IMG/VR virus record: IMGVR_UViG_2734482782_000005
Span: 1-41,225 of that record
DNA: 41,225 nt
Strand: one strand, 5' to 3'
Source: a virus
Lineage: Duplodnaviria > Heunggongvirae > Uroviricota > Caudoviricetes
A program made the translations under genes and the position numbers. Shown here in pieces: positions 1-41,225 of the stretch (positions are counted from its first letter, which is position 1; every line of letters starts with the position of its first letter). The notes beneath the pieces are model-generated. The model saw only the letters and a program-made list of their open reading frames with translations, searched no databases and was not told where the DNA came from.

Positions 1-1158
1 ATGCTCACCGTTAAGCAGATTGAAGCAGCAAAGCCGAAAGAAAAACCATACCGCCTTCTCGATGGTAATGGCCTGTACCTTTATGTCCCTGTATCCGGGA
101 AAAAGGTATGGCAGCTTCGCTACAAGATTGACGGTAAGGAGAAAATCCTGACCGTCGGAAAATATCCGCTTATGACTTTGCAGGAGGCAAGGGATAAGGC
201 ATGGACTGCGAGGAAAGACATCTCGGCTGGCATCGATCCGGTAAAGGCGAAAAAGGCTTCGTCTAACAACAATTCCTTTAGTGCGATTTACAAGGAATGG
301 TACGAGCACAAGAAGCAAGTCTGGTCAGTAGGCTATGCAACTGAACTTGCAAAAATGTTCGATGACGACATTTTACCTATCATCGGCGGCCTTGAAATTC
401 AGGATATTGAGCCGATGCAACTGCTGGAAGTAATCCGCAGATTTGAAGATCGCGGTGCAATGGAGCGAGCCAACAAAGCCCGCAGAAGATGCGGCGAGGT
501 TTTCCGTTACGCTATTGTCACTGGTAGGGCTAAATATAACCCGGCACCTGACCTTGCTGACGCCATGAAGGGATACCGCAAGAAGAACTTCCCGTTTTTA
601 CCTGCCGACCAGATCTCGGCATTCAACAAAGCACTTGCAACATTTTCAGGAAGTATCGTATCGCTCATTGCGACCAAAGTTTTACGCTACACAGCCCTAA
701 GAACAAAAGAGCTTCGTTCCATGCTATGGAAGAACGTCGATTTTGAAAACAGGATTATCACCATCGACGCCAGTGTGATGAAGGGACGCAAAATTCATGT
801 TGTCCCGATGTCAGACCAGGTGGTTGAACTTCTCACTACACTAAGCTCAATCACTAAACCAGTATCAGAGTTTGTTTTTTCCGGGCGCAACGATAAGAAG
901 AAGCCAATCTGCGAGAACGCGGTATTGCTTGTGATCAAACAAATCGGCTATGAAGGTCTGGAAAGCGGTCACGGATTCAGGCATGAATTCAGCACGATTA
1001 TGAACGAGCACGAATGGCCTGCTGATGCTATTGAAGTGCAACTGGCACATGCCAACGGCGGATCTGTACGCGGGATTTACAACCATGCTCAGTATCTCGA
1101 TAAGCGCAGAGAAATGATGCAGTGGTGGGCGGACTGGATTGATGAAAAGGTGGAGTGA
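1..1158 (+). CDS. intS: Tyrosine-recombinase prophage integrase (IntS-like)
   Basis: 385-aa ORF from ATG at 1; translation matches my recollection of E. coli KplE1/CPS-53 IntS; first gene inside a tRNA-associated prophage. Confidence 0.9.
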   Translation: MLTVKQIEAAKPKEKPYRLLDGNGLYLYVPVSGKKVWQLRYKIDGKEKILTVGKYPLMTLQEARDKAWTARKDISAGIDPVKAKKASSNNNSFSAIYKEWYEHKKQVWSVGYATELAKMFDDDILPIIGGLEIQDIEPMQLLEVIRRFEDRGAMERANKARRRCGEVFRYAIVTGRAKYNPAPDLADAMKGYRKKNFPFLPADQISAFNKALATFSGSIVSLIATKVLRYTALRTKELRSMLWKNVDFENRIITIDASVMKGRKIHVVPMSDQVVELLTTLSSITKPVSEFVFSGRNDKKKPICENAVLLVIKQIGYEGLESGHGFRHEFSTIMNEHEWPADAIEVQLAHANGGSVRGIYNHAQYLDKRREMMQWWADWIDEKVE

Positions 1159-4030: not shown

Positions 4031-6064
4031 TTACATAGTTGTACCATCAGCGTATTTCCAAGCTTGAGCCAGTTGATCAAAAAAAACTGGCTTTTTAGTG
4101 TCTATGTTATAGATACTGTGACCGTACCCAAGAAGGTTCTTATTTATAGCGTTTATCTGTGAGGACGTTGCAGCAGTTGGAATGCCAGACCATGCAACAG
4201 TAATTAATATCCAATTACTTCCTGTCCATCTGATGTATGTCCCAGTATCAATTTGGTAGTATATGTGTCCTACAGGTATACCTGTAGGTCTAGCGGAAGA
4301 AAGACCAACAACCTGAAACCCTCTGTCATCAATCCACATTCCAGCCCCTACGTTGGTAATGAACCTCCCAAATGTCACATCATAGTAACTGAAACCGGGA
4401 ATCGCATACCCCGTAAAGCCAGATTTCCAAGAGGCAGAGTTATCAATTGATCTAACTCGAATTGACCTTTTTTCTGCTTCAGTTGCACTCGATGGTGACG
4501 ACGAAGATACCGTGTGAATGGAAACGATATCCACAAGCGTGTTTATTGGTTCTTCGCCACGGAAAATGTACTGGAATCCATCGTAATGACAACCCTGCGA
4601 GTCAATAAATGTCGCCCGAACCCTGTCAGGGCGTCCGTAGTACACGGTAAGCGCATTAGCTGACGCGTAGGCTTCGTTGTAATAGCGTGAACCCTTATCC
4701 TGAATTCTTAGGACGTTTTTATAGTCAACGCCAACGGCTATACCAGCGGTAGTGGTTGTGAACCTGAATTCGTTATCTGAAAAAATCAGGTCGCCCATTT
4801 GCCATGTAGGATTGTCAATTTCATCCTCTGCACCTTGCGCGGAAATCATTATTCCGATTGCAAATGTGCGGCAGCGGTTATCACTGACTTTGAATACATC
4901 TGATTTCTGGTCGTGTCTGTGCGTGAATAGAGCAAAACCATAACCGCCAACTAGGTCATTGTTGTGCAGGTTAACGCGGTGTGTGCCAATGAATTTAAAC
5001 GCGCGTTCAAACGTTGTTTCTGGTGTTTCAGTATTGTAATTGCGCATCACAACACTGTTGTTTTGTACGAATGCGGCGCGGCTAGTTCCTGTCCCATCGG
5101 CAAAACTTGATGCGTAGACTGCATGGCGATCAAGCGGTGCGCCGGCTACACCAAAAATACAGTTGTCGACAGAGATAATCTCACAATCGATAGGGACAGT
5201 ACCATAGCCATAAACACCTGCGCTCCAGTCCTGTGAAGCGAGTTGCTGGAATACGTTGGAGTAACTAGCGCCATAGCACAAGTGAATCTGTGCAGTCACA
5301 GTGTTAACACCAGCACTGATGTTGCGCATTTCTGATCCTTCATAATGCGCATAAACGTTGTTCACAGTAATGCCAACTACAGCACGCCCAACACCACGAA
5401 CTTTTCCGCCGTCAATTTTGACTTTAGTGGTGACGCTTTCGACGCCTGTTCCGTCAAACGTCAGGATCTGGTAGTAGGTGTTTACGTCTGTAGGTGTGAA
5501 GTTAACCCAACCGTCAGCCGTAGATTTGATTGTAATGTCTCTACCATTTAACGATCTGCGAATTGGTGTGTTTATATTCTGTACGTTATCAATGAGAACA
5601 TCAGCACTGTTCTCAAGAGCGGTATCAATAGCCTGTTCAAGACTTCCAGCCTCTGATGTTTTTACAAGACCGCGAACGCCTCCAATGTATGAAAAACCAA
5701 TAGAAGATGAAAGCCTTCCCTCCAGCTGGTCAGGATCGTACTTCAGCACATTCGGAAAATAGAACTGCTGCGCACCATACGCATCGTATACAGCCATTGA
5801 ATGGCCTTGCACAGTTACGAATTTGGCAATCTGTCCGTTATATACCGGGTAACCAGCAGCGTTAATGATGATTGGTTGCGATACAGGAACATGAGAGCCG
5901 TCTTCGTTCTCTACATAAACCTGAATCTGGTTTTCAGGATTTACAGGGTCAGTGTCAATTTTACCGATATAAATTTTGCCATTGGCTACGGCTTTAAAAG
6001 AACGCGCCATAGTGAATAGTTGCGAAGGCATGCTTACCACAACATTTGCGGTGATATCTGACAT
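4031..6064 (-). CDS. Tailspike protein with P22-type N-terminal head-binding domain and a distinct receptor-binding domain
   Basis: Internal ATG at 6064 gives [11 protein letters not shown]..., recalled P22 gp9 N-terminus; GGAG RBS upstream; the rest does not resemble P22 endorhamnosidase; ORF-track start at 6112 is an upstream extension. Confidence 0.85.
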
Positions 6065-6089
6065 TTCATTGCTCCAGACGAATAATATG

Positions 6090-6112
6090 ATGCAACCATG
6101 ATGTGATTGCAT
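6090..6112. promoter_or_regulatory. 23-bp imperfect palindrome (ATGCAA-N11-TTGCAT) in the tailspike promoter region; candidate operator for the adjacent Mnt-like repressor
   Basis: Inverted repeat read directly; lies 26-48 bp upstream of tailspike ATG and upstream of divergent mnt. Confidence 0.3.
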
Positions 6113-6185
6113 ACCGAAATGGTACTATTGAGTATTTATCCAGTAGGTTACGATGCCATTCCACCCAACTGGTGAGGCATCAAGG

Positions 6186-6446
6186 ATGTACAGCAAATAC
6201 GACGAGGCGCAGTTTCACTTGAGACTTCCGCATGAACTCCACGCGAAAATTAAGCAGCGTGCGAAGATGAATAACAGGTCGCTGAACTCAGAGATAATTG
6301 CAGCGATTGAAGAATCATTGGACAAACAAAGCTCTGCATCAGTTTACATTGACGATGCAGAGCGTATGGCAGAACAACAATCTGATATGGTTAAGAAAAT
6401 TGTCTTTGATACGCTCAAGGAGCTATATAAAAAAGACAGCAGCTAA
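6186..6446 (+). CDS. mnt: Mnt-like ribbon-helix-helix repressor (immI-type)
   Basis: Translation from ATG 6186 (MYSKYDEAQFHLRLPHELHAKIKQRAK...NSEII...) resembles P22 Mnt including C-terminal ...VFDTLKELYKK; divergent to tailspike. Confidence 0.75.
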   Translation: MYSKYDEAQFHLRLPHELHAKIKQRAKMNNRSLNSEIIAAIEESLDKQSSASVYIDDAERMAEQQSDMVKKIVFDTLKELYKKDSS

Positions 6447-6535
6447 CTATCAGTTACGGAGGATTTATGCAAAGAGATATGCTGAATATTGCGTTCTACA
6501 TATTTGGTTTTTGCACGTTCCTGGTGTTTGCGAAG

Positions 6536-8815
6536 CTATTCTGACAACGCATCAGACTTGGCACCTTGAGTCAGGGCGTTAATGGCCTTTTGCGCCTGCT
6601 GCATGGCTTTCTCAAACGCTGTTGATCCGCGTGGGGTGTTTGCCATTCGGAGCATTGCATTTCTGAATGGCTCGCTCTCATAGGCGCGAGTAAGAAGTCC
6701 GTAGCTTACCGCTGCGCCAGTTGTCGCCGGGTTCATTGCCGTCCCATATCCGATAATGAACGGGATGGTTTGCTGCCCTGTTGGTGTTGTTACTGCCGCT
6801 TTTGCAGCCTGCTGCGTGGATTGCAGGTAGTTTTTCAATCCTTTCAGATAAGCAGCATCCTGCCCCTTAAATATTATTCCAGTCTGGTTTTGCATGATGT
6901 TAAGCTGCCGAAGGAACTGGTCAGGGGAACCACCTGATTTCTCCATCGCCTTTCCAATGATGCCATTGCGCATTTGCACCCTACCAACACGACCAACTGA
7001 GTTATACAGAGCCTTAATTTCAGATTTGTTCTTGCTGAATAGCATGTTGTTGACAACTTCCGGCGTCAGATCGCCTTTCATGAGAACATTCTTCAGCCTG
7101 GTATTCTTTAGTTTAGCCGCTTCGTCAGCGTAGACGGCATTGGCCTGCTGATATTTACGGAGAGTATCGTTGCCAAGATTCTGACCAATGGCACCATTGA
7201 TATCGTCGGTCATTGCCTTGTAAACGCGCTGAATGGCAGCATCGGAACGGTTTGGTAACACTGGTCGCTCACCCTTCACGTCCATTCTGAACTGGCTGCG
7301 CAGGTCGCTTAATTGCTTCAAATCCAGATTTACAGGACCATCAGGGCCAGCATTGCGAACAAGCTCATCACGATATGACTGAAGTTTTGAAATAGTCTCG
7401 TTATCAGCAACCTTACCAAGCTTCTGCAGGTTAGATATTTCTGTATCAATCTGCTGAATTGCTCGCGCAGGCTGAATGTTTACTCCAGCCATAGCATTCT
7501 GAACCTGCTCCAGTCGATTACCGGCGGCACGACGAATTCCTGATGTTTTCGCTTTAAGGCTGTCAATAACAACAGATGGATCATACTCACCGAATTTATC
7601 AGCAAATCTCTGCACCAACTGGCTTCTCGCTTCCTGTTGCGTTGCTCTCATTCCGCTTGTGCCAGCCAGAGGGATATTTTCTGCTGTAGTCTGCGCCATT
7701 TTTCCGACGCGGGAAGTGGGTTGTAACAGGTCTGTGGTGTGCAGAGGAACGCCTTCACGCTCTGCAAATCTGATAGCTTGCTGTGCTTCTGGCGCGATAG
7801 CACCACGAACGCCACGATAAGCAGCACCTAATCCACGTCCGGCAGCGTTAATAGCACCGCCAGCAAGTACACCAACGCCTAAATCGGTGGCGAGTGCTTC
7901 CGCATCATCTTTCGCACTATTTGCAGCAAGTGATCCAACTGCGTTTTCTGCTAGAAGGCGAGTTGCCCCCTGAGCAATTCGACCAGCAAGTGTTGGTGCC
8001 TGTGCTGCCGCTCTCTCAACGCCAGCAGGAGTGAGGTAAGGCAATGCTTCAGCAAATACCATTCCCTCTGTCGTTTGTGGAGTCAGCGCACCTTGCTGAA
8101 GGCCAAAGTCCTGCTCTAATCCCTGCGTTGTTACTCGTGGTGCTGGGTGATATGTCCCATCGCCAATTCCGAGTTTACCGCCAGCCCAAGCCGCCGCGCT
8201 TGTTACAGCATCGGCAACTGATGCAGGTATGTTTGCCACGTTCACGCCAGCCTGCACCAGTCCGCGACCAGTTTCAGCCGCGGCATTGCCAAGGTCGGAA
8301 ATGAAACCTCCTTGCTGCTGTGGCGCTGCCTGTGTACTTTGCTGTACAGGCTGTTGTGTAGCTTGATTCTTCCTAGGGAGGTATTCATCAGCTTGCTGGT
8401 TGTGCAGACTCTCCGCATATGCAGTGGCATCGTCAGGATTGTCGAACATACCAAGATGCTTTCCCGTCCTCATGAAGTTATCAATAGCTTCATCATCAGA
8501 CATAATGCGACCATCATCACTAACGGTAGGAATCAGCACCTCTCTACCATCTATATTGGTAGACATGCTCCGCACAGTGCTAATGCTGCCATCAGAGTTT
8601 TTAACAACAGGCCGATTGTGAATGTCAATATTACCCTTCTCTAGCAGACCTCTAGGGTAAGCAGAGTAAAACGCTTGTTTTGCCTGCTCTGCATTTTCTC
8701 CGGCTTGCGGGGCAACGACTTCATTGAAGTATTGTTCCTGAGCCTGCGCTTTTTGTTCTGGTGCTAACGCCTGATACTGTGGAGAGGCGATAACATCTTT
8801 CCATGCTTTAGCCAT
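6536..8815 (-). CDS. DNA-ejection (injection) protein, P22 gp16-like
   Basis: 759-aa ORF; position after gp20 in P22 gene order; N-terminus resembles gp16. Confidence 0.75.
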   Translation of the reverse strand: MAKAWKDVIASPQYQALAPEQKAQAQEQYFNEVVAPQAGENAEQAKQAFYSAYPRGLLEKGNIDIHNRPVVKNSDGSISTVRSMSTNIDGREVLIPTVSDDGRIMSDDEAIDNFMRTGKHLGMFDNPDDATAYAESLHNQQADEYLPRKNQATQQPVQQSTQAAPQQQGGFISDLGNAAAETGRGLVQAGVNVANIPASVADAVTSAAAWAGGKLGIGDGTYHPAPRVTTQGLEQDFGLQQGALTPQTTEGMVFAEALPYLTPAGVERAAAQAPTLAGRIAQGATRLLAENAVGSLAANSAKDDAEALATDLGVGVLAGGAINAAGRGLGAAYRGVRGAIAPEAQQAIRFAEREGVPLHTTDLLQPTSRVGKMAQTTAENIPLAGTSGMRATQQEARSQLVQRFADKFGEYDPSVVIDSLKAKTSGIRRAAGNRLEQVQNAMAGVNIQPARAIQQIDTEISNLQKLGKVADNETISKLQSYRDELVRNAGPDGPVNLDLKQLSDLRSQFRMDVKGERPVLPNRSDAAIQRVYKAMTDDINGAIGQNLGNDTLRKYQQANAVYADEAAKLKNTRLKNVLMKGDLTPEVVNNMLFSKNKSEIKALYNSVGRVGRVQMRNGIIGKAMEKSGGSPDQFLRQLNIMQNQTGIIFKGQDAAYLKGLKNYLQSTQQAAKAAVTTPTGQQTIPFIIGYGTAMNPATTGAAVSYGLLTRAYESEPFRNAMLRMANTPRGSTAFEKAMQQAQKAINALTQGAKSDALSE

Positions 8816-25481: not shown

Positions 25482-25660
25482 CTTGTTTTCCTCGCACGTT
25501 CTCTAAGCCACCGGATATCCCACAGGTGAGCCGTGTAGTTGAAGGTTTTTACGTCAGATTCTTTTGGGATTGGCTTGCGTTTATTTCTGGAGCGTTTCGT
25601 TGGAAGGTATTTGCAGTTTTCGCAGATGATGTCGGTGAAACTTCGTCGCTGTCGCCTCAT
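25478..25660 (-). CDS. ninE: NinE
   Basis: ATG 25660 gives 60 aa [52 protein letters not shown]... Confidence 0.7.
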
Positions 25661-26184
25661 GCCGCCCTCCTGACGCCCTGCCCGATCGCCATCAATGCCG
25701 ATTTGGATACGGTAGTAAACATCCGTCGAGGACTGATGAACGGTCGCCAAATCAGCAGCATGGAGCCTTTGCTGTTTCCCTTCTTCTCCAGCCCTGTCGA
25801 TGGTTCGATAAAATTAATCCGTCCATCAGTGATGATGCGAACTTCGTCGACACTCTCCAGAGCCTTGCTGAACCATCCGACTGACATATCCTCTGGCACA
25901 AGCATAACTACCGTCTGTCGCTGTTGTATGCACTGCTCAGCGGCTTTTTCCACCCACGGCCTGATATTGCTGTACGGTGGGTTATTCCAGATTGCACCGT
26001 GGCTTATCCACTCAGAATTGAGTGCGTCGTCGGCCTCAGTTAGCCAGTGAGCGCACAGAGCATTTTTGTCGCTCGCTGCCGAATCCAGCCAGAATCCAAA
26101 CTCAATATCCAGTGCATCAAAAAGCCAAAGCGGCGTTTGCCAGCAGTCCTTGTCGTGTGCTGCCGTATTTGATTTGATAGTCAT
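25657..26184 (-). CDS. Phage N6-adenine DNA methyltransferase (Dam-like), occupying the ninC/ninD position
   Basis: ATG 26184 ([26 protein letters not shown]...NPPYS...) with NPPY motif; ATGA overlap with ninB stop. Confidence 0.8.
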
Positions 26185-26609
26185 GCAGCCCGATCTCCCC
26201 ATCGCGCTTTCCACTCCAGAGCCAGTCGCGCTTCGTCTGACCACTTAACGCCACGCTCTGTACCGAATGCCTGTATAAGCTCTAATAGCTCCGCAAATTC
26301 GCTTACACGCATCCTGCTGGTTGACTGGCCTATTACCACAAAGCCATTCCCGGCAAGGTTAGGAACAACGTCCTGCTGCTTTAATGCTGCGGTAAACACA
26401 CACTTCCAGCTTTCTGCATCCAGCCAGCGACCATGCCATTCAACCTGACGAGAGACGTCACCAAGGCAAGCCCAAAGCTTTCGATTCTGGTCTAAGCTGC
26501 GGTTGCGCTGCTTAAACTCGACAATGATGTCTAAATCGCATGTCCTAAGATACTGAATGGCGTTATATCTTATAGATTCATTAGTAAGGTGATATTTGAC
26601 ACATTTCAT
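26181..26609 (-). CDS. ninB: NinB (Orf-family recombination protein) with divergent, AT-rich recoded N-terminus
   Basis: ATG 26609, 1 nt after the HNH stop, GAGG RBS; from about residue 27 (IIVEFKQRNRSLDQNRKLWACLGDVSRQVEWHGRW...) matches recalled lambda NinB. Confidence 0.8.
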   Translation of the reverse strand: MKCVKYHLTNESIRYNAIQYLRTCDLDIIVEFKQRNRSLDQNRKLWACLGDVSRQVEWHGRWLDAESWKCVFTAALKQQDVVPNLAGNGFVVIGQSTSRMRVSEFAELLELIQAFGTERGVKWSDEARLALEWKARWGDRAA

Positions 26610-26610
26610 T

Positions 26611-27198
26611 TTAATACCTCGCAAATTCGCCGAAACATTCATCCGCTTTATTTGCATATACTTTATGAGCTTCCTTTGGGTCATCGTAAAACCCAAGATT
26701 AACTTTCCTCTTGTTGATTACGATTTGCGCCCTCCATTTTCTTGATTTCTTATCCCATGAAACGCCTTTATATCCTGATTTGTTATTTGCCTTTTTGTTT
26801 ACGTTTTGGATGTTTTGAGATCGAGTTGCCAATCTAAGATTTGCTATACGATTGTCATCCCTAACGAGATTTATGTGGTCGATATCACTTTTTGGTAGAC
26901 TGCCATTCATATAGAGCCACGCCAGCCTGTGTGCCTTATAAAGTTTTCCATCGACTTTTATTACCCAGTAGCCTTCGCTACTCTTATGCCCTGCGATATC
27001 CCCAGCATTCATTCTCTGGCATTTCTTTACTTTCCATGTGAATTTCCCTGTTAACTCATCGTAGAGAAGGACTTCTTTAAGTCTCTGCTGAGTTATTTGA
27101 TTGATTGGTTTGGTTGGGTCTGGAAGAATTTGCTGTACCGCGTGAATAGCGTTTTGCTGATGTGCCGGAGATCGAATTTCAAAGGTTAGTTTTTTCAT
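26611..27198 (-). CDS. HNH homing-type endonuclease with AP2-like domain, fused in frame to the first ~32 codons of a lambda-type ninB
   Basis: ATG 27198 with strong RBS (GGGGAGAGGGAAG); N-terminal MKKLTFEIRSPAHQQNAIHAVQQILPDPTKPI = lambda NinB N-terminus, then HNH motifs (DHINLVRDDNRIANLR...SQN) and AP2-like GYKGVSWDKKSRKWRAQI; AT-rich. Confidence 0.8.
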   Translation of the reverse strand: MKKLTFEIRSPAHQQNAIHAVQQILPDPTKPINQITQQRLKEVLLYDELTGKFTWKVKKCQRMNAGDIAGHKSSEGYWVIKVDGKLYKAHRLAWLYMNGSLPKSDIDHINLVRDDNRIANLRLATRSQNIQNVNKKANNKSGYKGVSWDKKSRKWRAQIVINKRKVNLGFYDDPKEAHKVYANKADECFGEFARY

Positions 27199-27213
27199 GA
27201 CTTCCCTCTCCCC

Positions 27214-27245
27214 CAAATAAAAAGGCCTGCGATTACCAGCAGGCC
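27214..27245 (-). terminator. tR2-like intrinsic terminator between ren and the nin region
   Basis: Minus-strand GGCCUGC-UGGUAAUC-GCAGGCC hairpin followed by UUUUUAUUUG. Confidence 0.55.
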
Positions 27246-39247: not shown

Positions 39248-39448
39248 ATGCAACACGAACTACAGCCTGATTCCCTGGTTGATTTGAAATTCATCATGGC
39301 TGATACTGGCTTCGGTAAAACCTTCATCTACGACCGTATTAAGTCCGGCGACCTGCCAAAAGCCAAAGTTATCCACGGGCGAGCAAGATGGTTATATCGT
39401 GACCATTGTGAATTCAAAAATAAGCTCTTAAGCCGCGCCAATGGGTAA
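39248..39448 (+). CDS. torI: Excisionase-like recombination directionality factor TorI
   Basis: 66 aa, MQHELQPDSLVDLKFIMADTGFGKTFIYDRIKSGDLPKAKVIHGRARWLYRDHCEFKNKLLSRANG, matches recalled E. coli TorI; GGAG RBS. Confidence 0.85.
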   Translation: MQHELQPDSLVDLKFIMADTGFGKTFIYDRIKSGDLPKAKVIHGRARWLYRDHCEFKNKLLSRANG

Positions 39449-39977: not shown

Positions 39978-41225
39978 CTATATTGCTGAAGGTACAGGCG
40001 TTTCCATAACTATTTGCTCGCGTTTTTTACTCAAGAAGAAAATGCCAAATAGCAACATCAGGCAGACAATACCCGAAATTGCGAAGAAAACTGTTTGGTA
40101 GCCTGCGTGGTCAAAGAGTATCCCAGTCGGCGTTGAAAGCAGCACAATCCCAAGCGAACTGGCAATTTGAAAACCAATCAGAAAGATCGTCGACGACAGG
40201 CGCTTATCAAAGTTTGCCACGCTGTATTTGAAGACGGATATGACACAAAGTGGAACCTCAATGGCATGTAACAACTTCACTAATGAAATAATCCAGGGGT
40301 TAACGAACAGCGCGCAGGAAAGGATACGCAACGCCATAATCACAACTCCGATAAGTAATGCATTTTTTGGCCCTACCCGATTCACAAAGAAAGGAATAAT
40401 CGCCATGCACAGCGCTTCGAGTACCACCTGGAATGAGTTGAGATAACCATACAGGCGCGTTCCTACATCGTGTGATTCGAATAAACCTGAATAAAAGACA
40501 GGAAAAAGTTGTTGATCAAAAATGTTATAGAAAGACCACGTCCCCACAATAAATATGACGAAAACCCAGAAGTTTCGATCCTTGAAAACTGCGATAAAAT
40601 CCTCTTTTTTTACCCCTCCCGCATCTGCCGCTACGCACTGGTGATCCTTATCTTTAAAACGCATGTTGATCATCATAAATACAGCGCCAAATAGCGAGAC
40701 CAACCAGAAGTTGATATGGGGACTGATACTAAAAAATATGCCGGCAAAGAACGCGCCAATAGCATAGCCAAAAGATCCCCAGGCGCGCGCTGTTCCATAT
40801 TCGAAATGAAAATTTCGCGCCATTTTTTCGGTGAAGCTATCAAGCAAACCGCATCCCGCCAGATACCCCAAGCCAAAAAATAGCGCCCCCAGAATTAGAC
40901 CTACAGAAAAATTGCTTTGCAGTAACGGTTCATAAACGTAAATCATAAACGGTCCGGTCAAGACCAGGATGAAACTCATACACCAGATGAGCGGTTTCTT
41001 CAGACCGAGTTTATCCTGAACGATGCCGTAGAACATCATAAATAGAATGCTGGTAAACTGGTTGACCGAATAAAGTGTACCTAATTCCGTCCCTGTCAAC
41101 CCTAGATGTCCTTTCAGCCAAATAGCGTATAACGACCACCACAGCGACCAGGAAATAAAAAAGAGAAATGAGTAACTGGATGCAAAACGATAGTACGCAT
41201 TTCTGAATGGAATATTCAGTGCCAT
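39978..41225 (-). CDS. cscB: LacY-family oligosaccharide:H+ symporter, probably sucrose permease CscB
   Basis: 415-aa 12-TM MFS protein; collinear with LacY motifs (DKLGLKK, FDQQ); translation matches my recollection of E. coli CscB. Confidence 0.8.
   Translation of the reverse strand: MALNIPFRNAYYRFASSYSFLFFISWSLWWSLYAIWLKGHLGLTGTELGTLYSVNQFTSILFMMFYGIVQDKLGLKKPLIWCMSFILVLTGPFMIYVYEPLLQSNFSVGLILGALFFGLGYLAGCGLLDSFTEKMARNFHFEYGTARAWGSFGYAIGAFFAGIFFSISPHINFWLVSLFGAVFMMINMRFKDKDHQCVAADAGGVKKEDFIAVFKDRNFWVFVIFIVGTWSFYNIFDQQLFPVFYSGLFESHDVGTRLYGYLNSFQVVLEALCMAIIPFFVNRVGPKNALLIGVVIMALRILSCALFVNPWIISLVKLLHAIEVPLCVISVFKYSVANFDKRLSSTIFLIGFQIASSLGIVLLSTPTGILFDHAGYQTVFFAISGIVCLMLLFGIFFLSKKREQIVMETPVPSAI

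Follow-up and report, generated by a model that had tools for sequence, protein, structure and literature searches.

The region upstream of the tailspike gene of this P22-like prophage probably represents a Mnt-only remnant of the phage P22 immI region. In the reading that we favor, a 13-bp element next to the mnt-like gene would be the operator of the encoded repressor, mnt would be autoregulated, the tailspike gene would be served by the late promoter, and a neighboring 23-bp palindrome would belong to the tailspike leader. The entire stretch of DNA that was analyzed, 41,225 nucleotides in length, is referred to as the window in the following; judged by a close match to Escherichia coli S56, the prophage that it contains appears to be inserted at the argW tRNA gene. 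The features of the locus are compiled in Table 1.

Table 1. Genes and predicted control elements in and around the intergenic region between the tailspike and mnt-like genes.
Feature	Position	Strand	Remarks
Tailspike gene	4031-6064	-	677 aa; P22-type N-terminal head-binding domain (Pfam Head_binding, 1.8e-67)
Tailspike Shine-Dalgarno sequence	6070-6075	-	GGAGCA; kept as CTGGAGCA in all lineages
23-bp imperfect palindrome	6090-6112	-	ATGCAACCATGATGTGATTGCAT; 9-bp stem, 5-nt loop; 25 nt separate its end from the tailspike ATG
Predicted operator of the Mnt-like repressor	6111-6125	none	A-TACC-GAAAT-GGTA-C; center at 6118; inverted 4-bp boxes 5 bp apart
Predicted Pmnt	6128-6154	+	-35 TTGAGT (6128-6133), 15-bp spacer, -10 TACGAT (6149-6154); start near 6161
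Weak tailspike-directed promoter candidate at the Pant-homologous position	6131-6159	-	-35 ATGGCA (6159-6154), 17-bp spacer, -10 AATACT (6136-6131)
mnt leader	6162-6177	+	CACC-N5-GGTG palindrome/hairpin (6162-6174); Shine-Dalgarno sequence GAGG (6174-6177)
mnt-like repressor gene	6186-6446	+	86 aa; Pfam, PDB, RefSeq start
25-aa hydrophobic ORF	6468-6545	+	MQRDMLNIAFYIFGFCTFLVFAKLF; GGAGG ribosome-binding site; 21 nt after the mnt stop codon
Ejection-protein gene at the position of P22 gene 16	6536-8815	-	759 aa; last late-operon gene before the mnt module

The mnt-like gene and its neighborhood

An earlier note on this DNA had recognized a homologue of Mnt between the gene at the gene 16 position and the divergently oriented tailspike gene, and both the gene call and its placement are confirmed by Pfam, the PDB and the list of open reading frames. 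The N-terminal part of the 86-aa protein (residues 7-49) matches the Pfam family Arc (PF03869; 8.3e-15) and corresponds to a ribbon-helix-helix (RHH) domain, while residues 57-82 match Repressor_Mnt (PF11423; 3.3e-14), the C-terminal tetramerisation helix. The protein also matches the Mnt chains deposited in the PDB (1MNT, 5e-19; 1QEY, 1.7e-8), and it is 48% identical to the Mnt protein of P22. These matches identify it as a genuine Mnt-family repressor in which the RHH domain is followed by the tetramerisation helix. Its gene occupies the family's slot between the homologues of genes 16 and 9 and is read against the late operon, just as the gene for the same type of two-domain protein is in P22; a symmetric operator abutting the gene's own -35 region, a further trait of the family, is predicted here from the comparison of loci. 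We consider the start codon at 6186, which is also called by RefSeq in E. coli S56, to be the correct one. An alternative start at 6153, which would extend the protein to 97 aa, was rejected: it lacks a Shine-Dalgarno sequence, its ATG falls inside the conserved block TACGATGCC around the predicted -10 region, and both RefSeq and the alignment with P22 back the downstream start. The dN/dS ratio of the RHH domain amounts to 0.06-0.09, and this strong purifying selection on the repressor domain argues that the protein is functional.

The two flanking genes belong to the tail and the ejection apparatus, respectively. The 3' end of the ejection-protein gene matches gene 13 of Sf6 (annotated as a DNA transfer protein and P22 gp16-like), and its product is listed in RefSeq as a lytic transglycosylase domain protein. 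The tailspike gene starts with the ATG at 6064-6062, so that the edge previously given as 6065 has to be shifted by one position; the listed ORF reaches back to a further in-frame ATG at 6112.

Neither tblastn searches of the 41-kb window (14 queries) nor a Pfam scan covering 20 ORFs of the early region revealed a homologue of Arc, Ant or SieA, and none of these ORFs carries an Ant, KilAC or Bro domain. The only tblastn match to the Arc query is the mnt-like gene itself. Hence, the earlier note was right in stating that arc and ant are missing. A complete immI region consists of mnt, arc, ant and sar behind a Mnt-repressed Pant promoter, and P22 possesses arc, ant, sar and sieA; the prophage studied here, in contrast, has none of these four genes, the hexamers of its Pant are degenerate, and this promoter has probably decayed.

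The 25-aa ORF that follows mnt is probably co-transcribed with it, and no terminator is predicted between the two. An intact copy exists in 64 of 85 related loci and also in Sf6, which is devoid of mnt; in P22, by contrast, orf59a is the downstream gene. The putative cargo behind mnt varies between loci: it would be a 25-aa membrane peptide here, and a Rap1a-domain protein or lipoprotein-like ORFs elsewhere.

The predicted operator and predicted promoter of mnt

Adjoining the 23-bp palindrome, and missed by the earlier note, lies a 13-bp palindrome, TACCGAAATGGTA, at positions 6112-6124. We infer from comparative evidence that this TACC-GAAAT-GGTA element, and not the 23-bp palindrome, serves the Mnt-like repressor as its operator. 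Our comparison set comprised about 85 loci with this type of Mnt from Escherichia, Buttiauxella, Serratia, Klebsiella and Rahnella. In 83 of 85 loci, mnt is accompanied by an exact TACC-N5-GGTA sequence whose distance from the gene is constant; the sites of the remaining two are one base off. The TACC and GGTA boxes are invariant, even across lineages whose synonymous sites are saturated, whereas the 5-bp spacer between them varies (GAAAT, GAAAC, TAAAT, TAAAC, AAAAT, GAGAC, GTTAA). When 13 lineages, including P22, are aligned, the invariant columns are those of the operator boxes, the ATTG of the -35 region and the TA..ATG of the -10 region; the columns of the operator and of Pmnt line up with the operator and Pmnt that are annotated for P22 in NC_002371. 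A perfect palindrome of the 4-N5-4 type is expected by chance 0.5 times per 121 bp. The element is present in the window as a single copy, and searches for TACC-N5-GGTA and for the 15-mer with up to three mismatches added just one chance-level match. The idea of a second operator elsewhere, for instance in front of a relocated ant gene, was dropped on these grounds.

The DNA-reading β-strand of the Mnt-like protein has the sequence AQFHLRL. In Mnt, the residues that contact the DNA are Arg2, His6, Asn8 and Arg10. The operator half-site co-varies with the recognition strand: HFNFR is paired with GGTCCAC in P22, QFNLR with AGACCAC in phage L and 720R6, and QFHLR with ATACCGA in the prophage studied here. 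Each TACC box would be read by one dimer of the repressor tetramer through its QFHLR β-strand. EC.P3, GF-2, phiKp_30 and Kapi1 were considered as carriers of additional specificity classes and were set aside, as they are too divergent to be placed in register. The operators of the RHH proteins Arc (TAGA) and CopG (TGCA) are likewise built from 4-bp boxes 5 bp apart (PMC2724298). TACC-N5-GGTA shares this geometry, and all three elements are symmetric, 13 bp in length and overlap a promoter (PMC2724298), although the boxes themselves differ. The QFNLR strand of Arc is close to the QFHLR strand found here, but Arc and CopG lack the C-terminal tetramerisation helix of Mnt.

The predicted Pmnt promoter closely resembles its P22 counterpart. 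Its -35 hexamer, TTGAGT, lies 10 bp from the operator center, exactly as TTGAGA does in P22, and a -10 region of the form TAnnAT stands in the same register with the operator center in both. Mnt is known to stimulate Pmnt. Because the predicted operator abuts the -35 region with this P22-like 10-bp offset, the repressor would be expected to autoregulate, either positively or negatively, a small, prophage-expressed operon, which would consist of mnt and the ORF for the 25-aa membrane peptide. The Pmnt spacer is 15 bp in this lineage as compared to 17 bp in class 2, VSe13, L and 720R6, and a spacer of this length would make the predicted Pmnt a poor promoter. Since a better match to the sigma-70 consensus is present further upstream (CTGACA-17-AATAAT, positions 6058-6086, plus strand, 10 of 12 positions), the start site of the mnt transcript is uncertain. 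The mnt leader block TCCACCCAACTGGTGAGGCATC is conserved.

The 23-bp palindrome and transcription of the tailspike gene

The tailspike gene of P22-like phages is transcribed from a single late promoter (PMC2629481; PMC8022706), and in the prophage studied here it would likewise be reached by read-through from the late promoter. The 23-bp palindrome in its leader was correctly located by the earlier note; it is, however, imperfect, with 8 of 9 arm positions pairing on the plus strand, and it is not statistically unusual. With moderate confidence, we regard it as a tailspike-leader element that most likely adopts a stem-loop fold in late mRNA. Its predicted fold energy is -9.0 kcal/mol in the tailspike sense (z -2.9) versus -6.6 for the other strand, and single-base variants of the stem are tolerated as G-U pairs only in the tailspike-sense RNA. 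Among 12 sequence variants of the stem, 96% of the cells are paired. When each P22-type leader was folded separately, the leaders of P22, L, 720R6, Sf6 and further phages proved to have stem-loops of unrelated sequence in the corresponding place, and for 11 of 12 the tailspike sense gave the better fold.

It is somewhat unlikely, though by no means far-fetched, that the palindrome has no function at all and is a chance inverted repeat in a lineage-specific leader. Inverted repeats of its quality occur 1.67 times per kb, and one is present in 10% of the 121-bp intervals of the window; its covariation is weak and not significant (47 of 500 shuffles reach the score), and the 81-nt context of the stem folds no better than shuffled sequences do (z -0.9). 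What a chance repeat would not lead one to expect is the recurrence of stem-loops at this position, with their bias in strand, in the unrelated leaders of at least five lineages, nor the occurrence of UG, UA and CG at one stem position together with one double compensatory change. No Rfam family is detected between positions 5800 and 6800 at E <= 1. The stem-loop may weakly terminate or attenuate transcripts that are not antiterminated, or it may be a structure of the mRNA end. A terminator scan of the minus strand flags the palindrome as terminator-like, with 9 pairs, of which only 3 are G-C, followed by the tail CATATTATTC; if it terminates at all, the terminator is a weak one.

The earlier note had assigned a different role to the palindrome, namely that of the Mnt operator, placed over a dedicated tailspike promoter that would be shut off in the lysogen. 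The location of the palindrome in the gap between mnt and the tailspike gene, close to the tailspike ATG, would fit such a role, and so would the weak hexamers that overlap it (ATGCAA-17-CATATT or ATGCAA-19-TATTAT) and a compensatory G:C to T:A change in L005 by which its symmetry is preserved. Nevertheless, we hold this model to be highly improbable. The palindrome is confined to one near-identical lineage plus L005, and it is missing from class 2, VSe13, L007, L008, L056, L080 and L101-L105 despite an identical DNA-binding strand of the repressor. Lineages without it carry unrelated sequence in its place, and 11 of 44 distinct upstream sequences associated with the same repressor type do not contain it. 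Conversely, the mnt-less Sf6 has kept a part of it; it is TACC-N5-GGTA that tracks mnt instead. Its 6-bp arms, 11 bp apart, do not fit RHH operators with their 4-bp boxes separated by about 5 bp, and the restriction of the tolerated G-U pairs to the tailspike-sense RNA speaks against a role as a DNA site as proposed. The overlapping hexamers are poor matches (the -35 region agrees at 3 of 6 positions), a standard promoter scan of positions 5900-6700 detects no minus-strand promoter, and the tailspike gene is part of the late operon. Consequently, tests of the earlier proposal should target positions 6105-6130 rather than 6090-6112.

The broader suggestion that Mnt controls the tailspike gene in a rewired circuit fares better in one respect: there is a weak tailspike-directed promoter candidate, and it resides exactly at the position homologous to P22 Pant, the promoter that Mnt targets in P22 and that would here have lost its target genes and its consensus. 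Mnt bound at 6111-6125 might repress a residual Pant-type promoter that reads into the tailspike leader, thereby keeping the tailspike gene off in the lysogen or acting as a roadblock by which the level of late read-through is adjusted; this would be compatible with autoregulation of mnt. The candidate scores 8 of 12 in a relaxed scan and its predicted start, near 6124, lies inside the operator. The operator has stayed intact after the deletions that removed arc and ant, and that of phage L is perfectly palindromic (9/9). Furthermore, Villafane et al. speculated about an influence of Mnt and Arc on the late read-through that reaches the tailspike gene (PMC2629481), and the strong selection acting on a lone Mnt needs some explanation. 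We nonetheless find this model doubtful. The candidate falls below the promoter threshold of the standard scan, and its -10 region is degenerate and changes from one Mnt-only lineage to the next (L, TATATC; 720R6, TGCATC; class 2, CAAATC; here, AATACT), whereas the elements of Pmnt are conserved; moreover, the distance from the operator to the tailspike ATG varies between 54 and 76 bp among lineages. In our assessment, the candidate is probably a decayed Pant.

Related modules and the retention of a lone Mnt

Mnt-only loci have been encountered before. In ST64T, ST104, Para1 and phage L, the ant moron consists of no more than mnt and one gene of unknown function (PMC2629481; PMC8022706); like the prophage studied here, they have mnt in divergent orientation to the tailspike gene, lack arc and ant, and possess one small gene. 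Since such "ant morons" were already described by Villafane et al. in 2008 and by Zaworski et al. in 2020, the arrangement is not a novelty. VSe13, 720R6 and L have mnt and the tailspike gene as immediate divergent neighbors. Phage L retains the operator and Pmnt, but it belongs to the QFNLR/AGACCAC specificity class, its downstream gene orf62 is convergent, and the stem-loop in its tailspike leader differs in sequence. VSe13 shares the Mnt type and the operator with the present prophage, but lacks the 23-bp palindrome. IME10 and Sf101, in contrast, contain the same module at 97% DNA identity, the 23-bp palindrome included; the mnt-like gene is unannotated in IME10 and is labeled "partition protein ATPase" in Sf101. 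Our analysis thereby exposes a recurrent misannotation of Mnt under this name. Among 5,426 complete E. coli genomes, 427 carry this Mnt module.

Autoregulation alone leaves unexplained why a lone Mnt is retained under selection. In P22, the Mnt protein of the prophage also represses ant on a superinfecting genome. A lone Mnt could be retained to repress the ant promoter of incoming relatives with the same operator, so that the prophage would be protected from a superinfecting antirepressor. This would be in line with the repression of arc and ant by Mnt in the P22 prophage (PMC11016777), with the strong purifying selection on a domain that is without a target in cis, and with the Ant-like gene or fragment near mnt in the Serratia relative L008 and in VSe13. 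Such a function in trans is, however, improbable. Neither arc nor ant lies beside the operator in any of the at least 119 IMG/VR loci listed or in the 85 Mnt loci, and in almost all of both sets the divergent neighbor of the operator is the tailspike gene. An operator-fronted arc-ant operon was found neither among the IMG/VR pattern matches listed (at least 119 loci) nor in a protein scan with P0113, whose matches are mostly remote RHH proteins.

A more far-reaching and quite tentative view, which at present we would not favor, is that lone Mnt modules, rather than being decaying remnants of immI, are self-contained cassettes maintained by selection within the late operon. The operator, Pmnt and mnt would drive the expression of variable cargo from the prophage, the operator situated 54-76 bp upstream would gate non-antiterminated transcription of the tailspike gene, and the pairs of recognition strand and operator (those with HFNFR, QFNLR and QFHLR) would represent specificity classes.

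The reading that we prefer, a Mnt-only remnant of immI, reveals no new kind of regulatory circuit. Its value lies in the pairing of the QFHLR strand with the TACC boxes, which would constitute the third natural combination of a Mnt recognition strand and its operator, beside those of P22 and phage L, and would provide a ready data point for a recognition code of RHH proteins. At the same time, strong purifying selection is seen on lone Mnt repressors from several enterobacterial genera, which lends a sharper form to the question posed by the authors of the phage L study as to whether such a mnt gene is a remnant or a gene with a new function.

The lone mnt gene and its prophage setting

The window is a P22-like (Lederbergvirus) prophage that opens with its integrase gene and runs at its right end into host DNA; no tRNA gene was found in the window. 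The earlier note had placed an Mnt homologue between the gene in gp16 position and a divergent tailspike gene and had reported arc and ant to be missing, and this arrangement is borne out throughout. In addition to its Pfam matches, the 86-aa protein matches the solved structures of the N-terminal (1MNT, 5e-19) and tetramerisation (1QEY, 2e-8) domains of Mnt and is 48% identical to P22 Mnt, while no homologue of Arc, Ant or SieA was found within the window. The tailspike start, formerly given as 6065, is off by one base.

Features of the prophage, in window positions
Feature	Position	Strand	Remarks
Integrase gene	1-1158		Window start; followed by gtrA, gtrB and a GtrII-type gene
Upstream sigma-70 match	6058-6086	+	CTGACA-17-AATAAT, 10/12
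Tailspike gene	ATG at 6064		Divergent from mnt; Head_binding domain 1.8e-67
23-bp palindrome	6090-6112		ATGCAACCATGATGTGATTGCAT; imperfect
Predicted Mnt-like repressor operator	6111-6125		TACC-N5-GGTA at 6112-6124
Predicted mnt promoter (Pmnt)	6128-6154		-35 hexamer TTGAGT at 6128-6133; start near 6161
CACC-N5-GGTG element	6162-6174	+	Small palindrome/hairpin
mnt Shine-Dalgarno	6174-6177	+	GAGG; assigned
Mnt-like repressor gene	6186-6446	+	86 aa; Pfam Arc 8e-15, Repressor_Mnt 3e-14
25-aa hydrophobic ORF	6468-6545	+	MQRDMLNIAFYIFGFCTFLVFAKLF; strong ribosome-binding site GGAGG; starts 21 nt past mnt stop
Gene in P22 gene 16 position	6536-8815	-	Other side of mnt
Dam-family N6-adenine methyltransferase gene	25660-26244	-	nin-like region
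HNH-AP2 endonuclease-like gene	26614-27216	-	nin-like region
AlpA-type excisionase-like ORF	39248-39448		Precedes permease gene
CscB/LacY-family permease gene	39978-41225	-	Pfam LacY_symp 1.7e-193; host DNA, right end

The Mnt-only arrangement at the tailspike was already known. The region has been named the "ant moron", and phages ST64T, ST104 and Para1 carry in it mnt and one unknown gene only (Villafane et al., 2008, PMC2629481); phage L is organized in the same way, and its authors asked whether its mnt is a remnant or has acquired a new function (Zaworski et al., 2020, PMC8022706). The window's locus resembles these ant morons in possessing mnt without arc and ant. GenBank also holds its module already, unannotated or misnamed, in the closest published phages IME10 and Sf101 (both ~97% identity across 5900-6700). 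Of 5,426 complete E. coli genomes, 427 carry the module. In E. coli S56 it is present at 99% identity in a prophage adjoining the argW tRNA gene (order: yfdC, tRNA-Arg, intS, gtrA, gtrB, gtrC, tailspike, "Arc family DNA-binding protein", ejection proteins), whose part next to argW, intS through the capsid gene, closely resembles the window's left. The public records of Sf101 and the RefSeq records of P22 and ST64T call Mnt a "partition protein ATPase" or "putative chromosome segregation ATPase", an annotation error propagated between records. A gene similar to the HNH-AP2 gene of the nin-like region lies between tailspike and mnt in two relatives (L101 and L105).

A predicted operator that travels with mnt

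Our comparison set comprises 85 loci coding for the window protein's N-terminal sequence (MYSKYDEAQFHLR...) and having at least 140 nt upstream; they derive from IMG/VR viral contigs, from GTDB genomes (Escherichia sp., Buttiauxella, Serratia), and from contigs of Klebsiella aerogenes, Rahnella and metagenomes. TACC-N5-GGTA is found in 83 of them, and the remaining two depart from it at a single base. The spacer of 5 bp takes several forms (GAAAT, GAAAC, TAAAT, TAAAC, AAAAT, GAGAC, GTTAA), while the boxes are invariant in the same comparisons in which synonymous sites of mnt are saturated; the boxes are therefore under constraint.

The P22 record carries annotations for the mnt operator, Pant and Pmnt. 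When P22, phage L, 720R6, VSe13 and the window were aligned on the mnt-sense strand, all five displayed a 7-bp half-site, one base, the inverted half-site, a Pmnt -35 region (TATTGAG or TATTGTG) and, after 15-17 bp, a -10 element TAnnAT. Operator centre and -35 hexamer are 10 bp apart in P22 (TTGAGA), and the window shows the same distance. Moreover, the half-site covaries with the DNA-reading strand of the protein: HFNFR goes with GGTCCAC in P22, QFNLR with AGACCAC in phage L and 720R6, and QFHLR with ATACCGA in the window and VSe13, the central CC/GG and the arginine being common to all three specificity classes. According to what Knight and Sauer reportedly found in 1989, N-terminal residues set the specificity of Arc and Mnt. 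The window's site further shares the 13-bp layout of 4-bp boxes and a 5-bp spacer with the operators of Arc (TAGA) and CopG (TGCA) (PMC2724298). On the basis of the P22 register, the strand/half-site covariation and the Arc/CopG geometry, we assign the predicted operator and Pmnt as listed in the table. We found no earlier description of the QFHLR/TACC specificity class, nor of a demonstration that this operator, rather than the 23-bp palindrome, is conserved.

The predicted Pmnt carries two caveats: its spacer measures just 15 bp in the window's lineage, and a stronger sigma-70 match lies upstream. The -35 of this match overlaps the tailspike start codon, its predicted start falls near 6093 at the palindrome's edge, and its -10, AATAAT, is unique to the window (AATGAT in all relatives). 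It could represent a second mnt promoter, which would put the operator at about +18 to +32. The CACC-N5-GGTG element just before the Shine-Dalgarno sequence has boxes resembling TACC/GGTA and could serve either as a stem in the 5' part of the mRNA or as a second, weak site for binding; phage L and the relative L007 have small hairpins in the equivalent position.

The 23-bp palindrome and tailspike transcription

The palindrome that the earlier note linked to Mnt at the tailspike promoter does exist, but is unremarkable by itself because inverted repeats of such quality occur in 10% of the window's 121-bp intervals. Its distribution argues against an Mnt operator: the exact sequence (71/85 loci) is confined to the dominant, near-identical lineage, a related locus (L005) has a variant, other lineages contain unrelated sequence in its place, and Sf6, which lacks mnt, retains the left arm and part of the right, in contrast to the near-universal TACC-N5-GGTA.

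With moderate confidence, we view the palindrome as one lineage's own form of a tailspike leader stem-loop. Folded as tailspike-sense RNA, it gives a 9-bp stem that includes a single G-U pair (-9.0 kcal/mol, z -2.9); the complementary strand, which carries a C-A mismatch, reaches -6.6 kcal/mol. P22, L, 720R6, class 2 (a separate lineage with the same Mnt type), K. aerogenes, Buttiauxella and Sf6 have stem-loops of unrelated sequence 25-30 nt before the tailspike ATG, and 11 of 12 folded leaders, counting the window's own, show the higher stability in the tailspike sense. Among 12 distinct palindrome variants, pairing holds in 96% of cells, UG, UA and CG all occur at one position, and L005 has a double compensatory change; this covariation was not significant against shuffle controls (47/500), and a palindrome devoid of function is a live alternative to the leader stem-loop. 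A terminator scan flagged the palindrome as a weak terminator-like site; for phage L, intra-operon terminators were suggested to trim downstream mRNA or to stop transcripts without antitermination (PMC8022706). The stem-loop element ACCGTAGCCAYGCT(G/T)(C/A)GG is present in two copies before P22 gene 9 (4048-4066 and 4160-4178 of locus L004) and in two copies in the relative L080; the one closest to the tailspike corresponds to the conserved leader stem-loop, and the repeated sequences may mark boundaries of recombination.

The tailspike is treated as the final gene of a single-promoter late operon (PMC2629481; PMC8022706), and within 5900-6700 our promoter scan had no hit on the minus strand. 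A second, relaxed scan returned two weak tailspike-directed candidates. One consists of the candidate -10/-35 elements that the earlier note had placed over the palindrome, with a -35 scoring 3/6. The Pant-homologous candidate, ATGGCA-17-AATACT (8/12), would start near 6124, inside the predicted operator; its -10 has a different, degenerate counterpart in each of the other Mnt-only lineages (TATATC, TGCATC, CAAATC), in contrast to the conserved Pmnt elements. A residual Mnt-repressible tailspike promoter is improbable in our estimation, and it is not what selection maintains.

What a lone Mnt may control

The dN/dS of the ribbon-helix-helix domain is 0.06-0.09 versus L005, the Serratia relative L008 and VSe13, and the Mnt-like protein is therefore under purifying selection. 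In all lineages examined, mnt diverges from the tailspike with no arc or ant in between, and the genes downstream of it differ. The 25-aa ORF overlaps at its end with the 3' end of the gene in gp16 position. It is preserved intact in 64 of the 85 loci as well as in the mnt-less Sf6 (L003, from 3261), and could encode a small membrane peptide expressed by the prophage. Phage L and 720R6 have lipoprotein-like ORFs downstream of mnt on the other strand. In two metagenomic relatives (L101 and L102, 3258-3620), the start of a gene for a Rap1a domain, a family of type VI secretion immunity proteins, overlaps the mnt stop codon, which suggests that Pmnt drives variable cargo genes.

Several roles can be envisaged for the lone Mnt. 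It possibly gates transcription into the tailspike, and a role of Mnt/Arc in tailspike read-through has been speculated upon before (Villafane et al., 2008, PMC2629481). Trans-immunity against the ant of an incoming phage is likewise possible; among the matches listed (at least ~119 IMG/VR loci), none had an ant operon behind a TACC-N5-GGTA operator. The role with the best support is that of an autoregulator of a small operon expressed from the prophage.
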